This document shows positions 627 to 14,756 of a stretch of DNA of 35,224 bases, one piece after another. Origin of the DNA: an uncultured archaeon (GTDB lineage Archaea > Asgardarchaeota > Heimdallarchaeia > Heimdallarchaeales > Heimdallarchaeaceae). The first letter of the stretch is position 1. Each line of letters opens with the position of its first letter. Where the stretch lies: NCBI GenBank assembly GCA_964534625.1, contig CAZHRF010000016.1:23616-58839 (forward strand), in the 5' to 3' direction. The notes beneath the pieces were generated by a model. That model did not search any database. It was not told where the DNA came from and saw nothing but the letters and a program-made list of their open reading frames with translations. The position numbers and the translations under genes were made by a program.

Positions 627-1706
627 ATGAATACTACAACTCTAAACTGGTCTAAGTTCATAGGTTTTTGTCTTTTTACATTAGAAGAAGAACTCATATT
701 CGATAAAGTAATAAATAGTCATTCGTCATTTTCAACAATATATCATATAATAGATACAAGTCAAGAAACAAGAGAAGAAGTAAATAAATCAGGAAAAGTA
801 ACAACTATAAATGAGATATTCAGAGTTGATTATTATCTTATCTATAATATTGTTTTTGGAGTTATGTTTCAGCCAGATGTAGATACGGAAAATGCTCATA
901 AAATTAGTGACATCATTAAAAGAGAACTGCTAAAACACTTGAAAGACTATGGTGCAGTAGAAAAAATGGAACCAGAATCACAAACTGCTCTTATAAAACG
1001 ATTAGGTAGTATGGTTGCAGAACGTACTAGTACTGAATTGAAACAAATGATTACGAGTCAGAAACAAAAAGAACAAGCATTAGAACAAGCAAAGACATTC
1101 GATAAATTGACTCAGCCAGAAAAGGAAGTAGATAAAAAAATCAAACATGTTTCTCCAGAAACAGAAAAAAAACAAATAAGCTATAAGGATCAAGAAAAAA
1201 GGAGAAAAACGGGGAGTGATTCTGACAAGTTAGGTGATGTCGGAAGTTTATTGGATTTTATAGGATACCAGAGTCAAGAAATTGCTGGGAAAGAAATAGA
1301 GAAGAAAAAAGCAGAATTAACAGAACAAGTCTTAGAAGAAACAAAAAAAGACTCGATTAAAAGGCTCTTGTCGTCCGTCATCAAGGGATTAGATGATAAA
1401 ACTGGCGTATGTTTTGTATATTTGGCGGTTTCAGGTAGTTTAGAAACATTAAGTTATGGGATGTCAGAAAAACACGCATCATTTGTTCTGGGAATACTAA
1501 GTAAATATCCAGAAATTATTCGGCAAATTTTACAAGGAGAAGATGAGAAGTCATTAGACGCTGGAGATGGATATGTTGTTTTAGAAGAAGCTGAAGTGGG
1601 AATTCTAGTGAGTATTACCAGACAAAAAGAAGAAATTAATGAAATTTCTAAAAGATTTAAAGTAGTTAAAACCATGATTAATGAATTCCTTAAATCGTCA
1701 TTTTAA
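627..1706 (+). CDS. Hypothetical protein: possible longin-like N-terminal domain, charged linker, C-terminal roadblock-like domain (paralogue A)
   Basis: Long ORF (ATG 627, alternative TTG 618). Its C-terminal LSKYPEIIRQILQGEDEKSLDAGDGYVVLE motif is shared with the two neighbouring ORFs. Confidence 0.7.
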   Translation: MNTTTLNWSKFIGFCLFTLEEELIFDKVINSHSSFSTIYHIIDTSQETREEVNKSGKVTTINEIFRVDYYLIYNIVFGVMFQPDVDTENAHKISDIIKRELLKHLKDYGAVEKMEPESQTALIKRLGSMVAERTSTELKQMITSQKQKEQALEQAKTFDKLTQPEKEVDKKIKHVSPETEKKQISYKDQEKRRKTGSDSDKLGDVGSLLDFIGYQSQEIAGKEIEKKKAELTEQVLEETKKDSIKRLLSSVIKGLDDKTGVCFVYLAVSGSLETLSYGMSEKHASFVLGILSKYPEIIRQILQGEDEKSLDAGDGYVVLEEAEVGILVSITRQKEEINEISKRFKVVKTMINEFLKSSF

Positions 1707-1849
1707 ATAAGATTGATTTGAAAGCATGAGACCACTAGTATTATGATAGATCTAATTTGATGATTACTTAATTCATCTAGTCAGTATCTAATTTGATCGT
1801 TCCTAATTGTTCTGTGGTATATCTATATAATAAAATAGAATTGTTTTCG

Positions 1850-2410
1850 CTAATTCTTTTTTAAGAGATAGTTGTCTTTAACTACTTTTTGCACGTGATT
1901 GAGACGTCTTGCCAACTCGTCTACATCCTTGTTTTTTTCAACTATACCTACAAGATAACTATCACTTCGACAGTTTTCAAGCACAACATAGCCTATTCCA
2001 CTATCTAAAACTTTGATCTCATCTTCGGATCCAAGTAAATCATTAATTACCGGAGGATATTTCCTAAAAATTTCTACAATTTTTATGGCTATTTCTTTTT
2101 TTAATGGTCCTCGAATAATTACTTTGGTATCTTTCGAATCAGGATGAGGAATTAGTGCAGCAGATGAGAGCGATTCAAAATCAGAGGCAATACTTTCAAG
2201 CAATGCATCTATTGTTAGTCTAATCGCTTTTTGTACATCTACTTCTGATGATGTTTGCGCTAGAAACTCTCTTAGATATTTACCAGATTCCAACTGGTCT
2301 TTAGATATTTGTGCTTGTTCGTATGATTCAGCTAATTCCAGAAGTTTGTCTTTTGGTGTTTTTCTTCTTTTCCTAGTACTGATGTTTTTTTTCGATAAAT
2401 TATCTACCAT
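1850..2410 (-). CDS. Hypothetical protein with C-terminal roadblock-like domain (paralogue B)
   Basis: FRKYPPVINDLLGSEDEIKVLDSGIGYVVLENC motif matches both neighbours. Likely start is ATG 2410 (MVDNLSKK); the track's GTG 2464 is an alternative. Confidence 0.7.
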   Translation of the reverse strand: MVDNLSKKNISTRKRRKTPKDKLLELAESYEQAQISKDQLESGKYLREFLAQTSSEVDVQKAIRLTIDALLESIASDFESLSSAALIPHPDSKDTKVIIRGPLKKEIAIKIVEIFRKYPPVINDLLGSEDEIKVLDSGIGYVVLENCRSDSYLVGIVEKNKDVDELARRLNHVQKVVKDNYLLKKN

Positions 2411-2542
2411 AGTGCTGTCAATCTGAAATAGGATAATTAGACTAAAAAATGTTTTGGAGCTCACTTGTAATTTTTGTAACCATTTGTGTACGCTTTACAC
2501 TATATTTATTAAACAAATAATATAACTATTATATTAGATTTC

Positions 2543-3598
2543 ATGTCTGACCTCAGAATTGTGCTTGATAATATTGATGGTAGTTCTCTAGATAGAATAT
2601 CTGGTATAATAGTATATAATAGGGAAGGAAAAATAATAGTAGAGAAATATTATGATATCTCTGAACTGGAGTATGAATTTATTGAAACCAACTTTAGAAA
2701 CATTACGGTAGAATTTTATAATTGGATAAACGGTTATGATGAGATAACCCTTTTCCGAGGGTTATTAAGAGCAACTTTTGTCAAAATGTTTGATTCAACT
2801 TTTTTATTCGTCTCCGATGCTAATGTGGACATCAAGAAAGTTCAATCTTGCATTAGTTCAACAATTAAACAAATTTGTTTAGAAATCTTGAAAGATGCAA
2901 AAAATAAACCTTACAACTTTAGAGAAATTGTAGGTAATATTATTACTGATTACGATAAAGTATTGAAGACTGTTGAGCATATTCTAAAAAGAATGAACAT
3001 TGATCCTAATATTATCCAATCGGATATAAACTCTATTTCTACTTCTATTACATCTGAAAAAAGTGAACAACCTCTTTCTTCTGCAAAAGAGATTGATTAT
3101 ATATCATCTGAGCGGAGAAAGAAAAGAGAATATGATAGTGTAATTTATGATACCATTAAGCCTTTTGACGAATCAATTGTTCCAACTGTTGAAAAAAATC
3201 AGATGTCAGAAGAAATACTTACAACTGCTTCAAAAAAAGCAATTAAATCGTTGCTCTTTTCAATAATAAAAGCAACTAAATATCCTTCTGCTGCTACATA
3301 TATATACCCAAAAAATCACGGTACAATTGCTGAGATTTATGTTGGTAATATTGCAGAAAAAAAAATTCTTTATGTTTTAGAAACCCTTTCTAAATATCCA
3401 AGAGTTATTAATGAGATTTTGGAATCAGAAGAAGAAAACAAAATTCTAAATGCGGGAGATAATATTGTACAAGTCATATTAGAAAACTGTAGAGAAGGAA
3501 AATTATTGATTGGGATAACATCACAAATAGAAGATGTATCTATCGTAGCCAAAAACATGAAAGTTATTAGAGAAATAATAATCGGATTTGGTTTCTGA
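2543..3598 (+). CDS. Longin-like N-terminal domain plus C-terminal roadblock-like domain protein (paralogue C)
   Basis: N-terminal ISGIIVYNREGKIIVEKYYD resembles the beta1-beta2 hairpin of longin domains (AP sigma/mu, zeta-COP type). C-terminal LSKYPRVINEILESEEENKILNAGDNIVQVILENC matches the neighbours. Confidence 0.7.
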   Translation: MSDLRIVLDNIDGSSLDRISGIIVYNREGKIIVEKYYDISELEYEFIETNFRNITVEFYNWINGYDEITLFRGLLRATFVKMFDSTFLFVSDANVDIKKVQSCISSTIKQICLEILKDAKNKPYNFREIVGNIITDYDKVLKTVEHILKRMNIDPNIIQSDINSISTSITSEKSEQPLSSAKEIDYISSERRKKREYDSVIYDTIKPFDESIVPTVEKNQMSEEILTTASKKAIKSLLFSIIKATKYPSAATYIYPKNHGTIAEIYVGNIAEKKILYVLETLSKYPRVINEILESEEENKILNAGDNIVQVILENCREGKLLIGITSQIEDVSIVAKNMKVIREIIIGFGF

Positions 3599-3642: not shown

Positions 3643-4374
3643 TCAATAATTATTTTTATCTTCTACTATCTTACCATCTCTCATGAAAATTTGTCTAGGG
3701 GCTAGTTTTGCTTGATTTTGGTTATGGGTGACATAGACAAGTGTTTTGCCTTTTTTTTCACTCACTTCCAGTAATAACGACATAATTTTTCCCCCAGTTA
3801 CTGTATCTAAATTGCCTGTGGGTTCATCTGCCAATATTATTTTTGGTTCATTGGCGAGGGCTCTAGCAAATGCAACACGTTGTTGTTCTCCTCCACTTAA
3901 TTGATCTGGTTTGTGATCGCTTCTGTCTTCTAGTTCCACGAGTTTTAAAAGATCATTCACTCGTTTTATTCTTTTTTTCTTCTCGACTTTTGCTAGTATC
4001 ATTGGCATTTCTATATTTTTAGCCGCTGATAGTTCATCAAGTAGATTAAAACTTTGGAAAACATATCCAATTGTTTCTCTACGTAAATGGCTTAATTCAG
4101 AATCAGTCAATTTCTTAAGCTCTAAATCATGCACTTTGATACTCCCCTCATCAACATAATCGAGGGCACCAATAAGATTTAGTAGAGTGGTTTTTCCTGA
4201 TCCGCTAGGACCCACAATAGAAACGATTTGTCCTTGGTAGATTTGTAAATTTATGTTATTTACAGCTTTAACTTCGACTTCACCCATCATGTATCTCTTA
4301 GAAACGTTTTTGATTTCTATAGCATTCTTATTAATGTTAAAGGGAGCAAAGGGTATTTTTATATCTGTTTCCAT
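3643..4374 (-). CDS. ABC transporter ATP-binding protein, LolD/MacB/FtsE family
   Basis: Walker A GPSGSGKT, Q-loop GYVFQSFNL, signature LSGGEQQRVA, Walker B ILADEPTGNLD, H-loop VTH. Confidence 0.95.
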   Translation of the reverse strand: METDIKIPFAPFNINKNAIEIKNVSKRYMMGEVEVKAVNNINLQIYQGQIVSIVGPSGSGKTTLLNLIGALDYVDEGSIKVHDLELKKLTDSELSHLRRETIGYVFQSFNLLDELSAAKNIEMPMILAKVEKKKRIKRVNDLLKLVELEDRSDHKPDQLSGGEQQRVAFARALANEPKIILADEPTGNLDTVTGGKIMSLLLEVSEKKGKTLVYVTHNQNQAKLAPRQIFMRDGKIVEDKNNY

Positions 4375-4414
4375 GTAAAAACATCCTAATGTTTGCTTTA
4401 TTTATTTCTATTGG

Positions 4415-4720
4415 TTAATGAAATCTCTTTTTCATTCTTTTAAATTCTGATATCCAAGAGTTTTCCAAATCAATTTCTAATATTAAACATAACTGAAGAA
4501 ATAAAGAAAAAGCTTGCGCAATTTCTTGTGGTAATTCCTCTGTTTTAGGTTTTTTATGTCCCATCTCTTCTTTTTTATAACCTGTTTGAAAGAGTATGTG
4601 TTTACCAATCTCTCCAAGTTCTTCTTGTAAGTGAATAAAAACATCAGAAGGAGAAAAATTTAACCATCCTCTATCTTCTAAGAAGGCTTCTAAGTTTTCT
4701 TGTATTTCCTTTAATTCCAC
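4415..4720 (-). CDS. MazG-like nucleotide pyrophosphohydrolase
   Basis: About 100 aa, all-alpha, with HLQEELGEI and EIAQ motifs plus RGW and IDLE. Likely GTG start at 4720 just after the upstream stop. The second acidic motif (usually ExxD) is EIAQ, so activity may be altered. Confidence 0.75.
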   Translation of the reverse strand: MELKEIQENLEAFLEDRGWLNFSPSDVFIHLQEELGEIGKHILFQTGYKKEEMGHKKPKTEELPQEIAQAFSLFLQLCLILEIDLENSWISEFKRMKKRFH

Positions 4721-4730
4721 ATCTATCCCT

Positions 4731-6794
4731 CTAAGCAATTTTTTCTACAAGCAGTTCTTCATTTATTTTTTGCTTACATACCGGACATTCTTCTTTAATT
4801 TGTAACCATTGAAGTAGATGTCCTTTATGGGAAAGATTATCACAATTAGGACATTTATAGACTTTTTGATTTTTCTTTATAATCCCATTGCAAACAGTAC
4901 AAATTGGAGGCTGTTTTGAACAATTTGGACACATGACTCCTAATTGCTCAAGAGGATGACCACAAAATAAACATTTGTGCTTTTTAGCGGGAAGTATTAG
5001 ATCTCCATCTTTTTTAAATACTCTTAATGATATTTCGCCCTTATAATATCCAAACGCAAGCAGCTGACATATGATTTTAAAAACAGTTGATCTTGTTATA
5101 CCCAACGTATCAGATATATGTTTAATCTTTATTTTATTTCCTCTCTTCTCAATTTCATTGACAATATTCAAATAATAATTGCCTAAATCTCTTAGTTCCC
5201 TATTTGGTTTGAAATTGTATTGATGTAGCACCTTAACTCTAAATAAAGATAATTCAGTTGTTATTAATCCCGCTCCTGTTAGTTCATAGATAATATTTTT
5301 AACCGCCTTTCTAGATTTGTTCCAGATATGTTCTATTTTTATTATTGGCACCTTTTTATTGGAAATCAAAAACCCAAAAATTTCTTGATAATAGATGGGA
5401 AAATCTGTTAATTGATTTAAAATTGGTATAGAAGGGATATCCGTCGGAATAAGTTTATCACCTTCCACACGGCCTTTAATTATATCTTTACCTAAAAAAG
5501 AATACATCTTCTCTTTGGCAAAAAAACTATCAATACCCAAGGCCTCTGTAACATCTTTAGCTGAAATTTTCTTGTTTGCAATAACCATACCAAGTATTAA
5601 TTTTTCCCAACGTTCAAGTGAACCTTCAGTTCCTTTGGTATAACGTTTAACTTCTTCAACAATTACTTTTTTTCCATCTAAATAACAGGTAATAAATCCT
5701 TCAAAATGAAGATCAATCAAAGCTTCTACAACTTCGGAGGGAGTATTATTAACAACCATTGCAAGTTTTGATAGTTTAATACTATGAGTTGTATAAAGGA
5801 CCCCCATAATTGCTTGGTAATTAATCATTGATAATGTTCCAATTTCATCAATGGTTTTAGTTGGTGTGAATGTTGGGATATGTAAAGGAACTATTTCTTC
5901 TTTTTCATTAAAAACGCATTGAAATGACCCTTGAGCAGTGTATCTTGATAATATTTTAAGGGTGTAATTAGGTGATAAATTAAGAAAGAATGAAAGTTCA
6001 TTTAGTTTGACTTTTCTTTTTATGACAAGATATCCAATTAAAAGTTTATTTTCTCTTGTTAATTTGTCTAACTCCAGTTTTTTTGGTTTGATTAGGAAAC
6101 GCAATATTGTAAAATGGACTGTGCTTTTTCTAAAAAATCGAGCCTCTAATTTTACCTCGCTTTCAAGTTGTCTATGCAATATTAAATGAGATAACTTCAT
6201 TAATATAACATCAGATTGGATCTTAGTATACTTGGCGATTTCATGTAAATCAGTCTCTCTAAGCATCATAGAAACTCCAACAATAAATAAATCATCATCA
6301 GAAACAGCTAATCGTGTTTTTGGATCCCACACCCAATCCATTAATAATATATTTTCACTTAAGCGCCCTATAAATAACCCATTACATATTAACTTTTGCA
6401 GTATAATATTCATTTTTTCTTTAGATATATCTAGAACATTTACTAAATCTGTAAGTAAATGTTTTTTATTGGCAACAAAAAATCCCAAAATTGTTTTTTC
6501 TTCATCAGATGTGTTTTTACTATGAATAATCGGGTGTTTCATAATAGATCCTACGATGAACATCTTTCCTTCATAAAACCCTCTTAATACCATAGCTTTA
6601 ATTAATAATTGAATAAACTCTTTCAAATCATTTTCTGTAATATTGAGATCTTTGGAGCATTTGCTTACATCAAGTTGTCTGTATAATAAAAGTCGTGTTA
6701 TTATGATTGATTTAATAGCAGTAGATAGTTGGAAAATCGACCCATTATAGTTTGAATAATTAATATGGTATATGTCATCTCTGGTATATTGCAT
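4731..6794 (-). CDS. Tandem winged-helix (PCI-like) repeat protein with C-terminal zinc finger + RING, putative E3 ligase/scaffold
   Basis: Repeated ~75-aa units ending in PCI/WH-like motifs (LICNGLFIGRLSENILLM, LHFEGFITCYLDGKKVIV, FLGKDIIKGRVEGDKLI, LLAFGYYKGEIS). C-terminus has CxxC-CxxC, then CxxC...CxxC-x4-HxxH-x3-W-x6-CPxC. Confidence 0.75.
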   Translation of the reverse strand: MQYTRDDIYHINYSNYNGSIFQLSTAIKSIIITRLLLYRQLDVSKCSKDLNITENDLKEFIQLLIKAMVLRGFYEGKMFIVGSIMKHPIIHSKNTSDEEKTILGFFVANKKHLLTDLVNVLDISKEKMNIILQKLICNGLFIGRLSENILLMDWVWDPKTRLAVSDDDLFIVGVSMMLRETDLHEIAKYTKIQSDVILMKLSHLILHRQLESEVKLEARFFRKSTVHFTILRFLIKPKKLELDKLTRENKLLIGYLVIKRKVKLNELSFFLNLSPNYTLKILSRYTAQGSFQCVFNEKEEIVPLHIPTFTPTKTIDEIGTLSMINYQAIMGVLYTTHSIKLSKLAMVVNNTPSEVVEALIDLHFEGFITCYLDGKKVIVEEVKRYTKGTEGSLERWEKLILGMVIANKKISAKDVTEALGIDSFFAKEKMYSFLGKDIIKGRVEGDKLIPTDIPSIPILNQLTDFPIYYQEIFGFLISNKKVPIIKIEHIWNKSRKAVKNIIYELTGAGLITTELSLFRVKVLHQYNFKPNRELRDLGNYYLNIVNEIEKRGNKIKIKHISDTLGITRSTVFKIICQLLAFGYYKGEISLRVFKKDGDLILPAKKHKCLFCGHPLEQLGVMCPNCSKQPPICTVCNGIIKKNQKVYKCPNCDNLSHKGHLLQWLQIKEECPVCKQKINEELLVEKIA

Positions 6795-6871
6795 TGAAAC
6801 CCCCTTTTACTAAGAAAAAGACTTCAGATTATTTAAAAGTTATCTAATAGAAAAGAAAAATCAAAAAAGAG

Positions 6872-8167
6872 TTAAGCTCTGAGTAAGTATTTAGTTAGTT
6901 CCCACTCATATTCTTGTTCTTCTCCTTGTTTTTTCACTTTTTTATATTCCTCTAGTTCTTTCTTTTTGTTAGCAATAAATAAATCAACAATATCTTTCCC
7001 TATCGCCTTTTTGACAAAATCACTTTGTTCAAGATATCCAATCGCCTCTTCCAAACTTTCTGGGAGTTGTACTATACCTAACTCATTTTTCTCTTGTTTG
7101 GTCATTTTTTCAACATTTTTGATAGTTGGTGCAATTGGTTCTATTTTATTTTTTATACCCTCAAGACCAGCTTCGAGCAATAAAGCTTGTACCAAGTATA
7201 TGTTAGCTGAACAATCTGCTGCTCTATATTCGATTCGAGCATCATCTTCGTAACCCGGAACACGTATTAATGCCGTTCTATTACCTATCCCCCATGCTTT
7301 ATGAACGGGTGCTTCATGACCTGGCACGAGCCTTTTGTAAGAGTTAGTTGTTGGATTAAAGAAAGCGGTCATCTCATCAACATATTTTAAAATTCCTCCG
7401 ACAAAGTAGCGTAATAAATCGCTAATTCCTTTTTCTTTATCTGAAAAGATATTTACACTGTTTTTGGTTAAATATTGGTGAACATGTAGACCACTACCAG
7501 CTTGATCTGGGAAAGGTTTTGCCATAAAAGAGCAAATTATTCCTTCGAAGGCTGATTCTGTTTTTGCAATTATTTTAGATGTTTGAACGTTGTCTCCATG
7601 TATTAAGGCATCAGTGGGAGTAAATTCGATTTCTTGTTGACCATATCCACATTCGTGATGGATGGTTTTTACTCCCATTTCCATATCCATCATATCTTCA
7701 GCAATAAGCCTTCTTAAATAGCCATATACATCTAATGGGGCTGTGTCCATATATTCTCCATCATCGCTTGGTAATCCATCTTCATCTATGAAAAACCATT
7801 CTAGTTCTGGTCGGGTTTTATATTCATACCCCATCTTTTTAGCTTTAGCAATTGATCTCTTTAATATCCCTCTAGGGCATGTGGGATGAGGGTTTCCATT
7901 GTTATCTAACATATCACAGATGAACCTCCCCACTGTTGGTTCCCATGGTAAGATAGCAAATGTATCTAAATCAGGTTTCACTCGCATATCGGATTGTTCT
8001 GTTGAGAGAAAACCAAGTGACGATCCATCTACACCAGTACCTTGTTGCATTTTTGGCCAAATCTCTGCTGGAAATTCAACTGATTTTAGTTCTCCAAGTG
8101 CTGTTGTAAATTGAAATTGGATGAATTTTACACCTTTCTCTTTAAAAAAATCTACATTAAAAGTCAT
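6872..8167 (-). CDS. glnA: Glutamine synthetase type I family protein
   Basis: DGSS, QSDM, PELEWF, HHECGYGQQEIEF, FMAKPFPDQAGSGLHVHQ, NSYKRLVPGHEAP, NRTALIRVP and RIEYR motifs. A GS-like gamma-glutamyl ligase cannot be excluded. Confidence 0.88.
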   Translation of the reverse strand: MTFNVDFFKEKGVKFIQFQFTTALGELKSVEFPAEIWPKMQQGTGVDGSSLGFLSTEQSDMRVKPDLDTFAILPWEPTVGRFICDMLDNNGNPHPTCPRGILKRSIAKAKKMGYEYKTRPELEWFFIDEDGLPSDDGEYMDTAPLDVYGYLRRLIAEDMMDMEMGVKTIHHECGYGQQEIEFTPTDALIHGDNVQTSKIIAKTESAFEGIICSFMAKPFPDQAGSGLHVHQYLTKNSVNIFSDKEKGISDLLRYFVGGILKYVDEMTAFFNPTTNSYKRLVPGHEAPVHKAWGIGNRTALIRVPGYEDDARIEYRAADCSANIYLVQALLLEAGLEGIKNKIEPIAPTIKNVEKMTKQEKNELGIVQLPESLEEAIGYLEQSDFVKKAIGKDIVDLFIANKKKELEEYKKVKKQGEEQEYEWELTKYLLRA

Positions 8168-13375: not shown

Positions 13376-14756
13376 ATGCTTAGCCAGAAGTCCCACTCCT
13401 TGAGGGGTGAGATGAATGGCAAAAAAAACACAACAAAAGTCAGTTTTAGTATACAAACATTTTTGAACAAAAAAAACCAAGAGAAGGATGAGATGAAGGT
13501 CAACAGAGCATATAAAGTAAGGATATACGCTACAAAAGAACAAGAACACATGCTCATAAAGACCTTCGGGTGTTGTAGGTTCCTCTGGAATAACATGCTA
13601 GCGGAACGAAAAGAGATATACGAAAAACTAAAAGACAACAAAGAAGAACTGTACGAGTACACCTATAAAACAGAAAAGGAGTATAAACAAGCGTATACGT
13701 TCCTGAAAGACGTGGGGAGTAGGGCGTTACAAGAAGAACGAATACACCTAGAACGGGCATTCAAAGAGTTTTTCAAAGGAACACGGGGATACCCCAAGTT
13801 TAAGTCCAAGAAACACCCTCGTCAAAGTTTTACGACCTACAATGTTAACAACAACGTAAAGATAGATTTTAAGAAAAAGAAGATTAAAGTACCCAAAATT
13901 AAGCAATGGTTCAAGTATAGAGACAACAGAATCTTTACTGAACCGATTAAAATTAGTACCATCTCGAAAACCAAGAGTGGAAAATAGTATATTTCACTAG
14001 TAATAGAAAAGAAGATCGAGATACATCCTAAAAACGAAATTAAAGCGTTTAAAATTAGAGCATTTGACATGTCAACTACATACTTCCTCGTTTCAGAGGA
14101 GGATGAAACTTACTAGCCCCCGATTCTACCGAAAAGAAGAAAAGAAACTTAAACGTTTACACCGCTGGGTATCGAGGAAGAAGAAGGGGTCGGAAAACAG
14201 GAAAAAAGCCAAGAAAAGACTAGCCCGTTTCTATGATAAAATAAATAACAGACGCAAAGATTGGGTGCATAAAACGACCACAAAGTTAGCCGAGTTATAC
14301 GATGCTATTATCCTCGAAGACCTGAATGTTAAAGGTATGCAACAGTTTACTATAGGGGTAAGTAAATCGGTGACCTTAGACTTTTCTTGGAGTGAGTTTG
14401 TAAGATTAGTAGAGTACAAACTCGAAGAACGGGGCAAGTATGTGATAAAAGTTGATAGGTTTTTTCTTTCCAGTAAGCAGTGTTCGACATGTGGCTATAC
14501 ACACACCACGTTACGATTATCTGAACGGGAGTGGACGTGTTCTTTATATGGTGCCGTCCATGACCAAGATGTTAACGCTTCCCGTAACGTATACTCTGAG
14601 GGATGTAGAACCCTCGACGAGCTTGGTGTCTCCATACAATGTACCGTCGGGACGAAGGGACCTATAGACGACGCTTGTGGAGGAGAGGTAAGTCCTCATT
14701 TTGAGGCCACTTCGTTGAAGCAAGAAACCATCTGCCTGTAGGCAGTGGTAGTTCAT
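13376..14756 (+). mobile_element. IS200/IS605-family, IS1341-type (tnpB-only) insertion sequence, decayed
   Basis: Left-end hairpin gcca-gaag-tcccactcc-ttga-ggggtgaga-tgaa-tggc (13383-13420). Right-end GAAA plus hairpin acca-t-ctgcc-tgta-ggcag-tggt, then AGTTCAT ending at 14756. tnpB lies between them, with no tnpA, and is visibly more GC-rich than the flanks. The left boundary is approximate. Confidence 0.88.
13493..14741 (+). pseudogene. tnpB: TnpB RNA-guided endonuclease pseudogene (nonsense mutation plus frameshift)
   Basis: N-terminal RAYKVRIY...FGCCRFLWN and GYPKFKSK. In-frame TAG at 13985 (KSGK*YIS, usually KYY). RuvC-I AFDMS at 14060 is in the same frame, then a 1-nt frameshift near 14100 leads into the frame carrying ILEDLNVKGM, SSKQCSTCG and HDQDVNASRN. 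About 415 aa when reconstructed. Confidence 0.9.

Follow-up and report, generated by a model that had tools for sequence, protein, structure and literature searches.

The roadblock fold serves as a docking platform for small GTPases in bacteria and eukaryotes, and dimers built from roadblock or longin domains underlie the eukaryotic regulators of Rab, Rag, and Arf GTPases, including Ragulator, TRAPP, Mon1-Ccz1, and GATOR1/FLCN. Heimdallarchaeia are among the nearest archaeal relatives of eukaryotes. Here, we analyzed a 35,224-nucleotide stretch of contig CAZHRF010000016.1 from an uncultured member of the Heimdallarchaeaceae (the window; coordinates without a locus handle refer to it) and found three adjacent genes, called A, B, and C below, whose products end in a common roadblock-type domain. 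The trio is a real, unannotated, and order-restricted new branch of the known roadblock/longin superfamily. By analogy with the systems named above, we give a probability of roughly one half to the reading that these proteins form a dimerizing longin/roadblock platform that serves one or several small GTPases, with A and C as a two-layer heterodimer and B as an extra or alternative partner.

In Asgard archaea, longin and roadblock superfamily proteins of lineage-specific architecture are abundant (Liu et al., bioRxiv 10.1101/2020.10.19.343400; Tran et al. 2024, PMC10933270), and the roadblock superfamily alone has been divided into about 130 orthologous groups with patchy, lineage-specific distributions and unusual domain fusions (bioRxiv 10.1101/2020.10.19.343400). 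The kind of protein described here is thus known even if the family is new. One class of Asgard longins has been linked to GTPase-activating proteins (GAPs) of the FLCN/NPRL2 type (PMC12290439). In solved complexes, the general rule is that roadblock and longin domains associate laterally through strand beta3 and the single top helix, and that a small GTPase then binds on the top face of the dimer (Levine et al. 2013, PMC3747258).

A shared C-terminal domain in three neighboring genes

The contig bearing the trio is 58.8 kb long and belongs to a 3.37-Mb genome that is 90% complete and has a G+C content of 31%. The three genes and their parts are as follows, with lengths in amino acids (aa) and model confidence as the predicted local distance difference test (pLDDT).

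627 to 1706, + strand: gene A, 359 aa, ATG start; longin-like N-domain, long helix, disordered linker, and roadblock C-domain
654 to 1064, + strand: longin-type domain of A, residues 10-146, modeled as beta-beta-alpha-beta-beta-beta-alpha-alpha, without an N-terminal helix and with two helices at its end
1101 to 1295, + strand: linker of A, residues 159-223, low complexity, pLDDT <50, ending in a conserved LL(D/E)FIG motif
1287 to 1688, + strand: predicted roadblock-fold domain of A, residues 221-354, from the AlphaFold2/DSSP order, VIA-align, and Foldseek
1850 to 2410, - strand: gene B, 186 aa; conserved basic N-terminal tail and helix (residues 1-54), then one roadblock-type domain
1853 to 2248, - strand: domain of B, residues 55-186, paralogous to the C-domains of A and C by alignment, BLASTP, and hhalign
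2543 to 3598, + strand: gene C, 351 aa; roadblock/longin-type N-domain, helical segment, disordered linker, and roadblock C-domain
2543 to 2917, + strand: N-domain of C, residues 1-125, with short N-terminal helices, from AlphaFold2 and VIA-align
3206 to 3595, + strand: predicted roadblock-fold domain of C, residues 222-351, from the AlphaFold2/DSSP order, VIA-align, and Foldseek

The last ~130 residues of the three products align with 21 invariant columns, which include KYP, I..L, E.EK.L..G, V.LE, and L..I, and the shared domain bears a motif of its own, K(Y/F)P...E.K.L(D/N).G. Pairwise BLASTP gives E-values of 2e-20 for A/C, 5e-15 for B/C, and 5e-12 for A/B, and hhalign comparison of the ortholog-set profiles gives 1e-18 for A-C and 1.1e-11 for B against the C-domain of A. 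The BLASTP values lie far beyond chance, and on both comparisons the paralogy of the three C-terminal domains is real. Upstream of it, B is short and basic, STRKRRKTPKDK, and its ATG start agrees with the N termini of its orthologs.

Each of the three groups is conserved in its own right. Orthologs of A (n=16) show 49-55% identity and those of B (n=16) show 54-62%, while the alignment for C comprises 17 rows at 34-39% and one relative at 90%. Mean column identity within the ortholog sets is 60-77%, which indicates purifying selection, and the three groups are diverged by 65-72% from each other.

Fold, family, and comparison with known systems

The structures discussed here are AlphaFold2 models built from ortholog alignments for A and C; the fold of B is taken from its paralogy to them. 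Model confidence is medium (pLDDT 71.6 for A and 66.6 for C), with globular parts mostly at 64-91 by ten-residue block. In both models, DSSP assigns the C-domain (residues 221-354 of A and 223-349 of C) the order alpha-beta-beta-alpha-beta-beta-beta-alpha, and its ~120 residues form the five-stranded sheet between one helix and two helices that defines the roadblock/LC7 topology. In an exhaustive structural comparison by VIA-align, the closest structures to the C-domain of A are CvnB 3leq (Z 10.3), the third longin domain (LD3) of Mon1 (Z 10.3), Roadblock3 of MK-D1 (Prometheoarchaeum; Z 10.1), and MglB (Z 9.9); those to the C-domain of C are MglC (Z 10.6), Mon1 LD3 (Z 10.5), MglB (Z 10.1), and CvnB (Z 9.7). 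Overall, the best roadblock matches of the C-domains reach Z 9-10.6 with a root mean square deviation (rmsd) of 2.7-3.1 Å over 100-116 residues. Foldseek returned LAMTOR2/3, Rag C-terminal domains, MglB, and Asgard roadblocks, all at probability 1.0. A shape search of the ESM Atlas concurs with the roadblock matches, and the feature search there, with all scores <0.9, gave as one lead a 333-aa Asgard cluster with Robl_LC7.

Sequence comparison adds a weak link in the same direction. When the 30-row domain alignment was compared by hhalign with the six canonical Robl_LC7 (PF03259) proteins of the same genome, the probability was 76% (E 2.3e-5, 123 columns), and a weak HMMER match to the Roadblock/LC7 protein CvnB5 had E 0.02-0.13; these two are the sole sequence-level links of the trio to a known family. 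Since GAF and IclR-effector structures score Z 8-9.9 in VIA-align, near the roadblocks, the fold assignment rests on topology, size, top ranks, and the weak sequence link jointly. Taken together, we consider membership in the roadblock/longin superfamily highly probable.

No family name could be attached to the trio. Pfam and NCBIfam scans of A, B, and C gave only noise far under the cutoffs (EFP, DUF5830, Lrs14, and mCpol), PF03259 matched none of the three even at E 10 and the gathering threshold was not reached, no Gtr1_RagA or Ras appeared in the Pfam scan of the three proteins, and the N-domain of A matched no Pfam longin family in it. An exhaustive search of 1.84 billion cluster representatives with the domain profile found nine proteins of 59-366 aa, none of them a longer or GTPase-fused form, and a word-based homolog search with C returned C itself and the one 90% relative only. 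Public entries for family members, under Candidatus Heimdallarchaeota, Heimdallarchaeaceae, and Heimdallarchaeum aukensis, read "hypothetical" or "uncharacterized" protein. In the literature searched, the longin-linker-roadblock architecture, the syntenic trio, and the family itself are undescribed, and the family could correspond to one of the published asCOGs.

The N-terminal domains differ from each other. In the model of A, DSSP places strands at residues 11-18, 23-28, 57-61, 66-72, and 75-81 and helices at 46-55, 87-106, and 116-161. The closest structure to this domain in VIA-align is COPI delta (5mu7_B; Z 10.7, rmsd 2.9, 117 residues aligned), and further matches are the VAMP7 longin (Z 9.7), AP-3 mu/sigma (Z 9.4-9.5; AP mu/sigma overall Z 9.1-9.5), and the first longin domain (LD1) of Fuzzy (Z 9.1), so that both the order of strands and helices and the nearest structures are those of a longin. 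The N-domain of C is closest to the LokiRagO C-terminal domain (Z 10.4), followed by MP1 (Z 9.3), LAMTOR2 (Z 9.0), and an MK-D1 roadblock (Z 9.0), with longins slightly below the roadblocks at Z 8-8.9. In both proteins, a linker of 55-65 residues, predicted to be disordered and variable in length among orthologs, separates the two domains. hhalign found no signal (probability <=1%) between the N-domains of A and C, or between them and the C-domains or Robl_LC7, and an internal duplication is therefore not demonstrable by sequence; the N-domain of single-copy relatives (see below) shows a weak roadblock signal (E 5e-4).

The initial annotation had read the locus, from its letters and open reading frames (ORFs) alone, as three neighboring paralogs on the strands +, -, and + with a common C-terminal domain of roadblock fold, unlike N termini (that of B short and basic), and no described family, and each of these claims stands: the first by the ORFs, the 21 invariant columns, and E-values down to 2e-20, the fold by the AlphaFold2 topology, the best structural matches, and the weak profile link to Robl_LC7 and CvnB5, the N termini by the sequences themselves, and the absence of a name by Pfam, NCBIfam, the profile search, and public records. 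It had further proposed a longin-like N-domain in C and possibly in A; the possible case, A, held up, with longins as best matches, while C has an extra N-terminal helix and matches roadblocks slightly better.

Among described systems, the shared domain is most like the roadblock/LC7 proteins that possess the C-terminal helix, namely MglB/MglC, LAMTOR2/LAMTOR3 (p14/MP1), Streptomyces CvnB, MK-D1 Roadblock 1-3, and Thor-RB, which have like topology and size and are its best structural matches. Canonical roadblocks, however, are single-domain proteins of ~100-140 aa, whereas the trio domain stands at the C terminus of 351-359-aa proteins or behind a basic tail. They also differ at the level of sequence, as a PF03259 search of the same genome recovers the six canonical roadblock genes and not the trio.

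With the tri-longin-domain (TLD) guanine nucleotide exchange factors (GEFs) that act on Rab GTPases, namely Mon1-Ccz1, HPS1-HPS4/BLOC-3, and Fuzzy-Inturned, the trio shares several longin/roadblock-type domains per chain and paralogous partners, and TLD GEFs are the top Foldseek matches of C (E 9e-6 to 4e-4), within a set of TLD GEF subunits, LAMTOR2/3, and Rag C-terminal roadblock domains (CRDs) at E 1e-5 to 1e-3. In contrast to the three consecutive domains found there, A and C have two and B has one, a disordered linker replaces the packed core, and full-length superpositions are poor (rmsd 17-20 Å, TM 0.2-0.27). No Pfam match connects the trio with Mon1, Ccz1, HPS1/4, or Fuzzy/Inturned, and identity in the structural alignments is 7-12%. 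We rejected a specific kinship to Mon1/Ccz1, as the high Foldseek rank comes from two domains matched at once and the per-domain Z equals that of MglB/MglC.

Ragulator/EGO and the CRDs of Rag proteins, including LokiRagO and LokiRagM, likewise represent a set of diverged roadblock paralogs expected to pair, and Rag CRDs are among the matches of A and C, with that of LokiRagO as the best match of the C N-domain. Unlike Rag/Gtr GTPases, A and C have N-domains that fold in the models as longin/roadblock and not as P-loop GTPase, and the trio is without a GTPase domain. Ragulator subunits, moreover, are single-domain proteins, and no LAMTOR1-like wrapping subunit was identified for the trio. With two domains and not three, A and C are not members of the TLD family, and without a GTPase domain they are not Rag-like.

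Conservation and history of the locus

Two further features are needed for this part.

2411 to 2542, no strand: AT-rich 132-bp spacer between the divergently transcribed genes B and C
Locus L004 (contig C9, same genome), 1012 to 1926, + strand: gene D, 304 aa, a distant two-domain fourth paralog

The order A(+) B(-) C(+) is held in 15 loci from four genera, and B and C are divergent in 15/15 with a spacer of 86-252 bp; the 132-bp spacer of the window is a probable shared promoter region. A and B are convergent, 25-143 bp apart in three genera and elsewhere ~700 bp apart with a small zinc-ribbon ORF in between. In most relatives, A and B are separated by this ORF, which spans ~190-220 aa and has a zinc-ribbon/RING-like motif at its C terminus (L030, 4835-5500, +; genera g4 and g2); it is absent in this genome, where the two genes are 143 bp apart. 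Among the loci related to the trio are those of two closed genomes, Heimdallarchaeum endolithica and H. aukensis, and the placement of the stretch in the Heimdallarchaeaceae is right.

Across 400 genomes of the phylum, we followed the distribution of the domain with a 30-row profile. It occurs in each of the 30 further genomes of this family; 25 have 4 or 5 matches, which stand for the trio and the D copy, and the remaining 5 have 1 to 3 only. Elsewhere in the order, families mostly have one copy (1/1 genomes in f2, 11/12 in f3, and 1/3 in f4), none of 22 genomes of the next family of the class has the domain, and the remainder of the phylum gave marginal matches only (E ~1e-4), several of them to ORFs of canonical roadblock size. 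As judged from these profile matches, a single order of Heimdallarchaeia holds the whole family.

In a maximum-likelihood tree of the domain, whose root was not established, so that the direction of change is our reading of it, the trio splits from D and the single-copy relatives with support of 100/100, B (99/100) and C (98/97) form clades that each contain all sampled genera, and A is a short-branched, unresolved grade. The composition of the B and C clades indicates that the duplications are older than the radiation of the family. D groups with the single-copy members from other families of the order and looks like the ortholog of an order-wide two-domain gene. We suggest that local duplication of such a gene in the stem of the Heimdallarchaeaceae gave rise to the trio and that D is probably the surviving copy of the ancestral type. 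The initial annotation had put forward the local duplication and had named synteny in relatives as a check; the tree fits a duplication before the family radiated, and the 15 loci bear out the synteny across Heimdallarchaeaceae with order and orientation preserved.

D is convergent with a radical SAM gene beside an archaeosine-type gene, as in one relative (L040). We considered and rejected a functional link between D-type copies and the radical SAM protein, as the adjacency looks like retained gene order beside archaeosine genes and the orientation is convergent. In this same relative, from family f2, a canonical roadblock gene (132 aa; 353-751) and an ORF of 302 aa (821-1729), both on the - strand, lie ~4 kb from the single-copy member, and no GTPase was seen in the 7.6-kb locus.

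A candidate GTPase platform and its surroundings

A, B, and C are conserved paralogs in which A combines a longin with a roadblock domain, C a roadblock-like with a roadblock domain, and B a basic tail with a roadblock domain. We propose that, like all characterized roadblock/longin proteins, they most likely pair laterally through helix alpha2 and strand beta3, which would create dimeric platforms. The most natural arrangement would match A with C one domain at a time, as Mon1-Ccz1 or the Rag heterodimers do, while B might be a third roadblock subunit, an alternative partner, or a homodimer. Among the genome's ~45 Ras-superfamily GTPases, one or more could dock on such a platform, which would act as a scaffold, GEF, or GAP cofactor. 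Dimerization, a hetero-oligomer, and any link to GTPases, and with them the hetero-oligomeric GTPase-regulator scaffold that the initial annotation had inferred, are plausible by analogy with known systems. The residues strictly common to the three paralog groups include P286 in alpha2 and K300/L302 in beta3, and these two elements belong to the dimer interface and the GTPase-binding face of longin and roadblock domains (PMC3747258).

Several observations weigh against this proposal. The genome encodes 45 Ras-superfamily matches and ~4 long Rag-like proteins, and no GTPase gene was found on the trio's 58.8-kb contig, near D, or beside family members in the other families examined. The conservation across paralogs is only mildly concentrated in alpha2-beta3, with the 8 strict positions spread over the domain. 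Three C-domains and two N-domains make an odd number of pairing units, and in genus g3 (genome G002, 91% complete) C is missing at an otherwise intact locus (L025, contig C80, 5058-5229) and was not found elsewhere in that genome. The models of A and C are of only medium confidence (pLDDT 67-72), and the scores of GAF and IclR-effector structures come close to those of roadblocks. The lack of a nearby GTPase gene is typical for Asgard archaea, in which GTPases and their roadblock/longin partners rarely share operons (Tran et al. 2024, PMC10933270). A complex prediction with full-length A, C, and B, with B as the partner and run with no controls, scored 0.00, under the mark, and counts neither for nor against an assembly, and the sequencing runs that contain the stretch are DNA only (a microbial mat metagenome that is probably the source sample), with no RNA set listed.

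The genus lacking C, together with the odd number of domains, makes an obligate A-B-C complex unlikely. It is also quite doubtful that an A-C two-layer heterodimer, with a longin/roadblock pair above a roadblock pair and joined by B, serves a specific Rab/Rag/Arf-like GTPase of Heimdallarchaeia as a GEF or scaffold in the manner of Mon1-Ccz1 or Ragulator. If this were true, the A-C-B assembly would be a present-day representative of the multidomain longin-roadblock heteromers that could have given rise to eukaryotic TLD GEFs.

The three proteins might instead be subfunctionalized paralogs that act singly, for example, as homodimers on different partners, with their adjacency a relic of tandem duplication and the B-C promoter a convenient means of coregulation. 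We see this as possible, if on the unlikely side. The g3 locus, with A and B and without C, would fit such separate action, as would the insertion of the zinc-ribbon gene between A and B in most genomes, the good conservation of each ortholog group despite 65-72% divergence from one another, and the solved structures of MglB and MK-D1 Roadblock2/3, which are homodimers according to their titles. It fits less well that four genera retain the order and orientation of the trio, also where the flanking genes have been rearranged, and the eukaryotic sets of multiple longin- and roadblock-domain paralogs (Ragulator, Mon1-Ccz1, and Rag) are heteromeric (PMC3747258).

A role outside GTPase control, either as a small-molecule or peptide sensor resembling GAF or IclR-effector domains or as a cytoskeleton or membrane adaptor like dynein LC7 or profilin, appears improbable to us. 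GAF, IclR-effector, and profilin structures do turn up in the fold searches at Z 8-9.9, no GTPase gene is a neighbor, and the conserved basic tail of B, like the acidic repeat protein kept upstream of A (described below), might mediate other contacts. Against this, the top structural matches are roadblocks and longins, a length of ~125-135 aa and the exact alpha-beta-beta-alpha-beta-beta-beta-alpha order suit a roadblock and not the larger GAF fold, and the sole sequence-level links lead to Robl_LC7 proteins. Finally, the notion that the similarity is a chance or compositional artifact of AT-rich, low-complexity ORFs that are not genes, for which one could cite the 31% G+C genome and the low-complexity linkers in A and C, is refuted by the E-values down to 2e-20, by three ortholog groups with intact frames in up to 30 genomes, and by globular domains modeled at fair confidence (pLDDT mostly 64-91).

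For the proposed longin/roadblock platform, the significance lies in the fact that colocated, conserved, and diverged roadblock paralogs, with two domains or one, are defined candidates for heteromeric platforms in an archaeon, and the trio could help to pair some of the many orphan Asgard GTPases with regulators. As things stand, it is one more unannotated, order-restricted family in the large and patchy Asgard roadblock/longin repertoire.

Upstream of A, the window begins within another gene.

3 to 467, + strand: 3' end of an acidic tandem-repeat protein gene, directly upstream of A, which continues upstream (L050, 5861 to 7083)

Its product has PEPEVTPT units, a basic C-terminal tail, and conserved termini, and the gene is broken in this genome by an N-run (assembly gap) just ahead of the window. 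In every relative's locus examined, an ortholog of this gene immediately precedes A on the same strand, and no Pfam family was found for the ortholog. Speculatively, the acidic repeat protein could be a fourth component; a LAMTOR1-like wrapping role for it is pure speculation. The g3 locus L025 has the AIR-synthase-like gene, B, the acidic repeat gene, and A, with the A segment inverted relative to the other genomes.

Downstream of C, this genome encodes an ABC ATPase, a short MazG-like ORF, a winged-helix/PCI protein of 687 aa with a RING finger at its end, and GlnA (3643-8167, - strand), and the relatives have an AIR-synthase-like gene, Bud32, a B12 radical SAM gene, and Kae1 in this position; on their other flank are the acidic repeat protein, an unknown gene of 348 aa, and a JAB gene. 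As the ABC ATPase, MazG-like, winged-helix-RING, and GlnA genes neighbor the trio in this genome only, a functional link with them was rejected, and conservation does not support a nutrient-signaling locus around the trio.

One of the genome's six canonical Robl_LC7 (PF03259) genes lies at the end of the contig (~35029-35190, - strand) and is cut by it, and two others are found near Ras-like GTPase genes, adjacent on contig C9 and ~3 kb off on contig C34. The window also contains a split IS605 OrfB/TnpB-like element on the + strand (13376-14741), with HTH_OrfB at 13376-13987 and OrfB_IS605 plus a Cas12f1-like TNB domain at 14064-14741, probably representing a transposon-associated nuclease gene that was disrupted or frameshifted.

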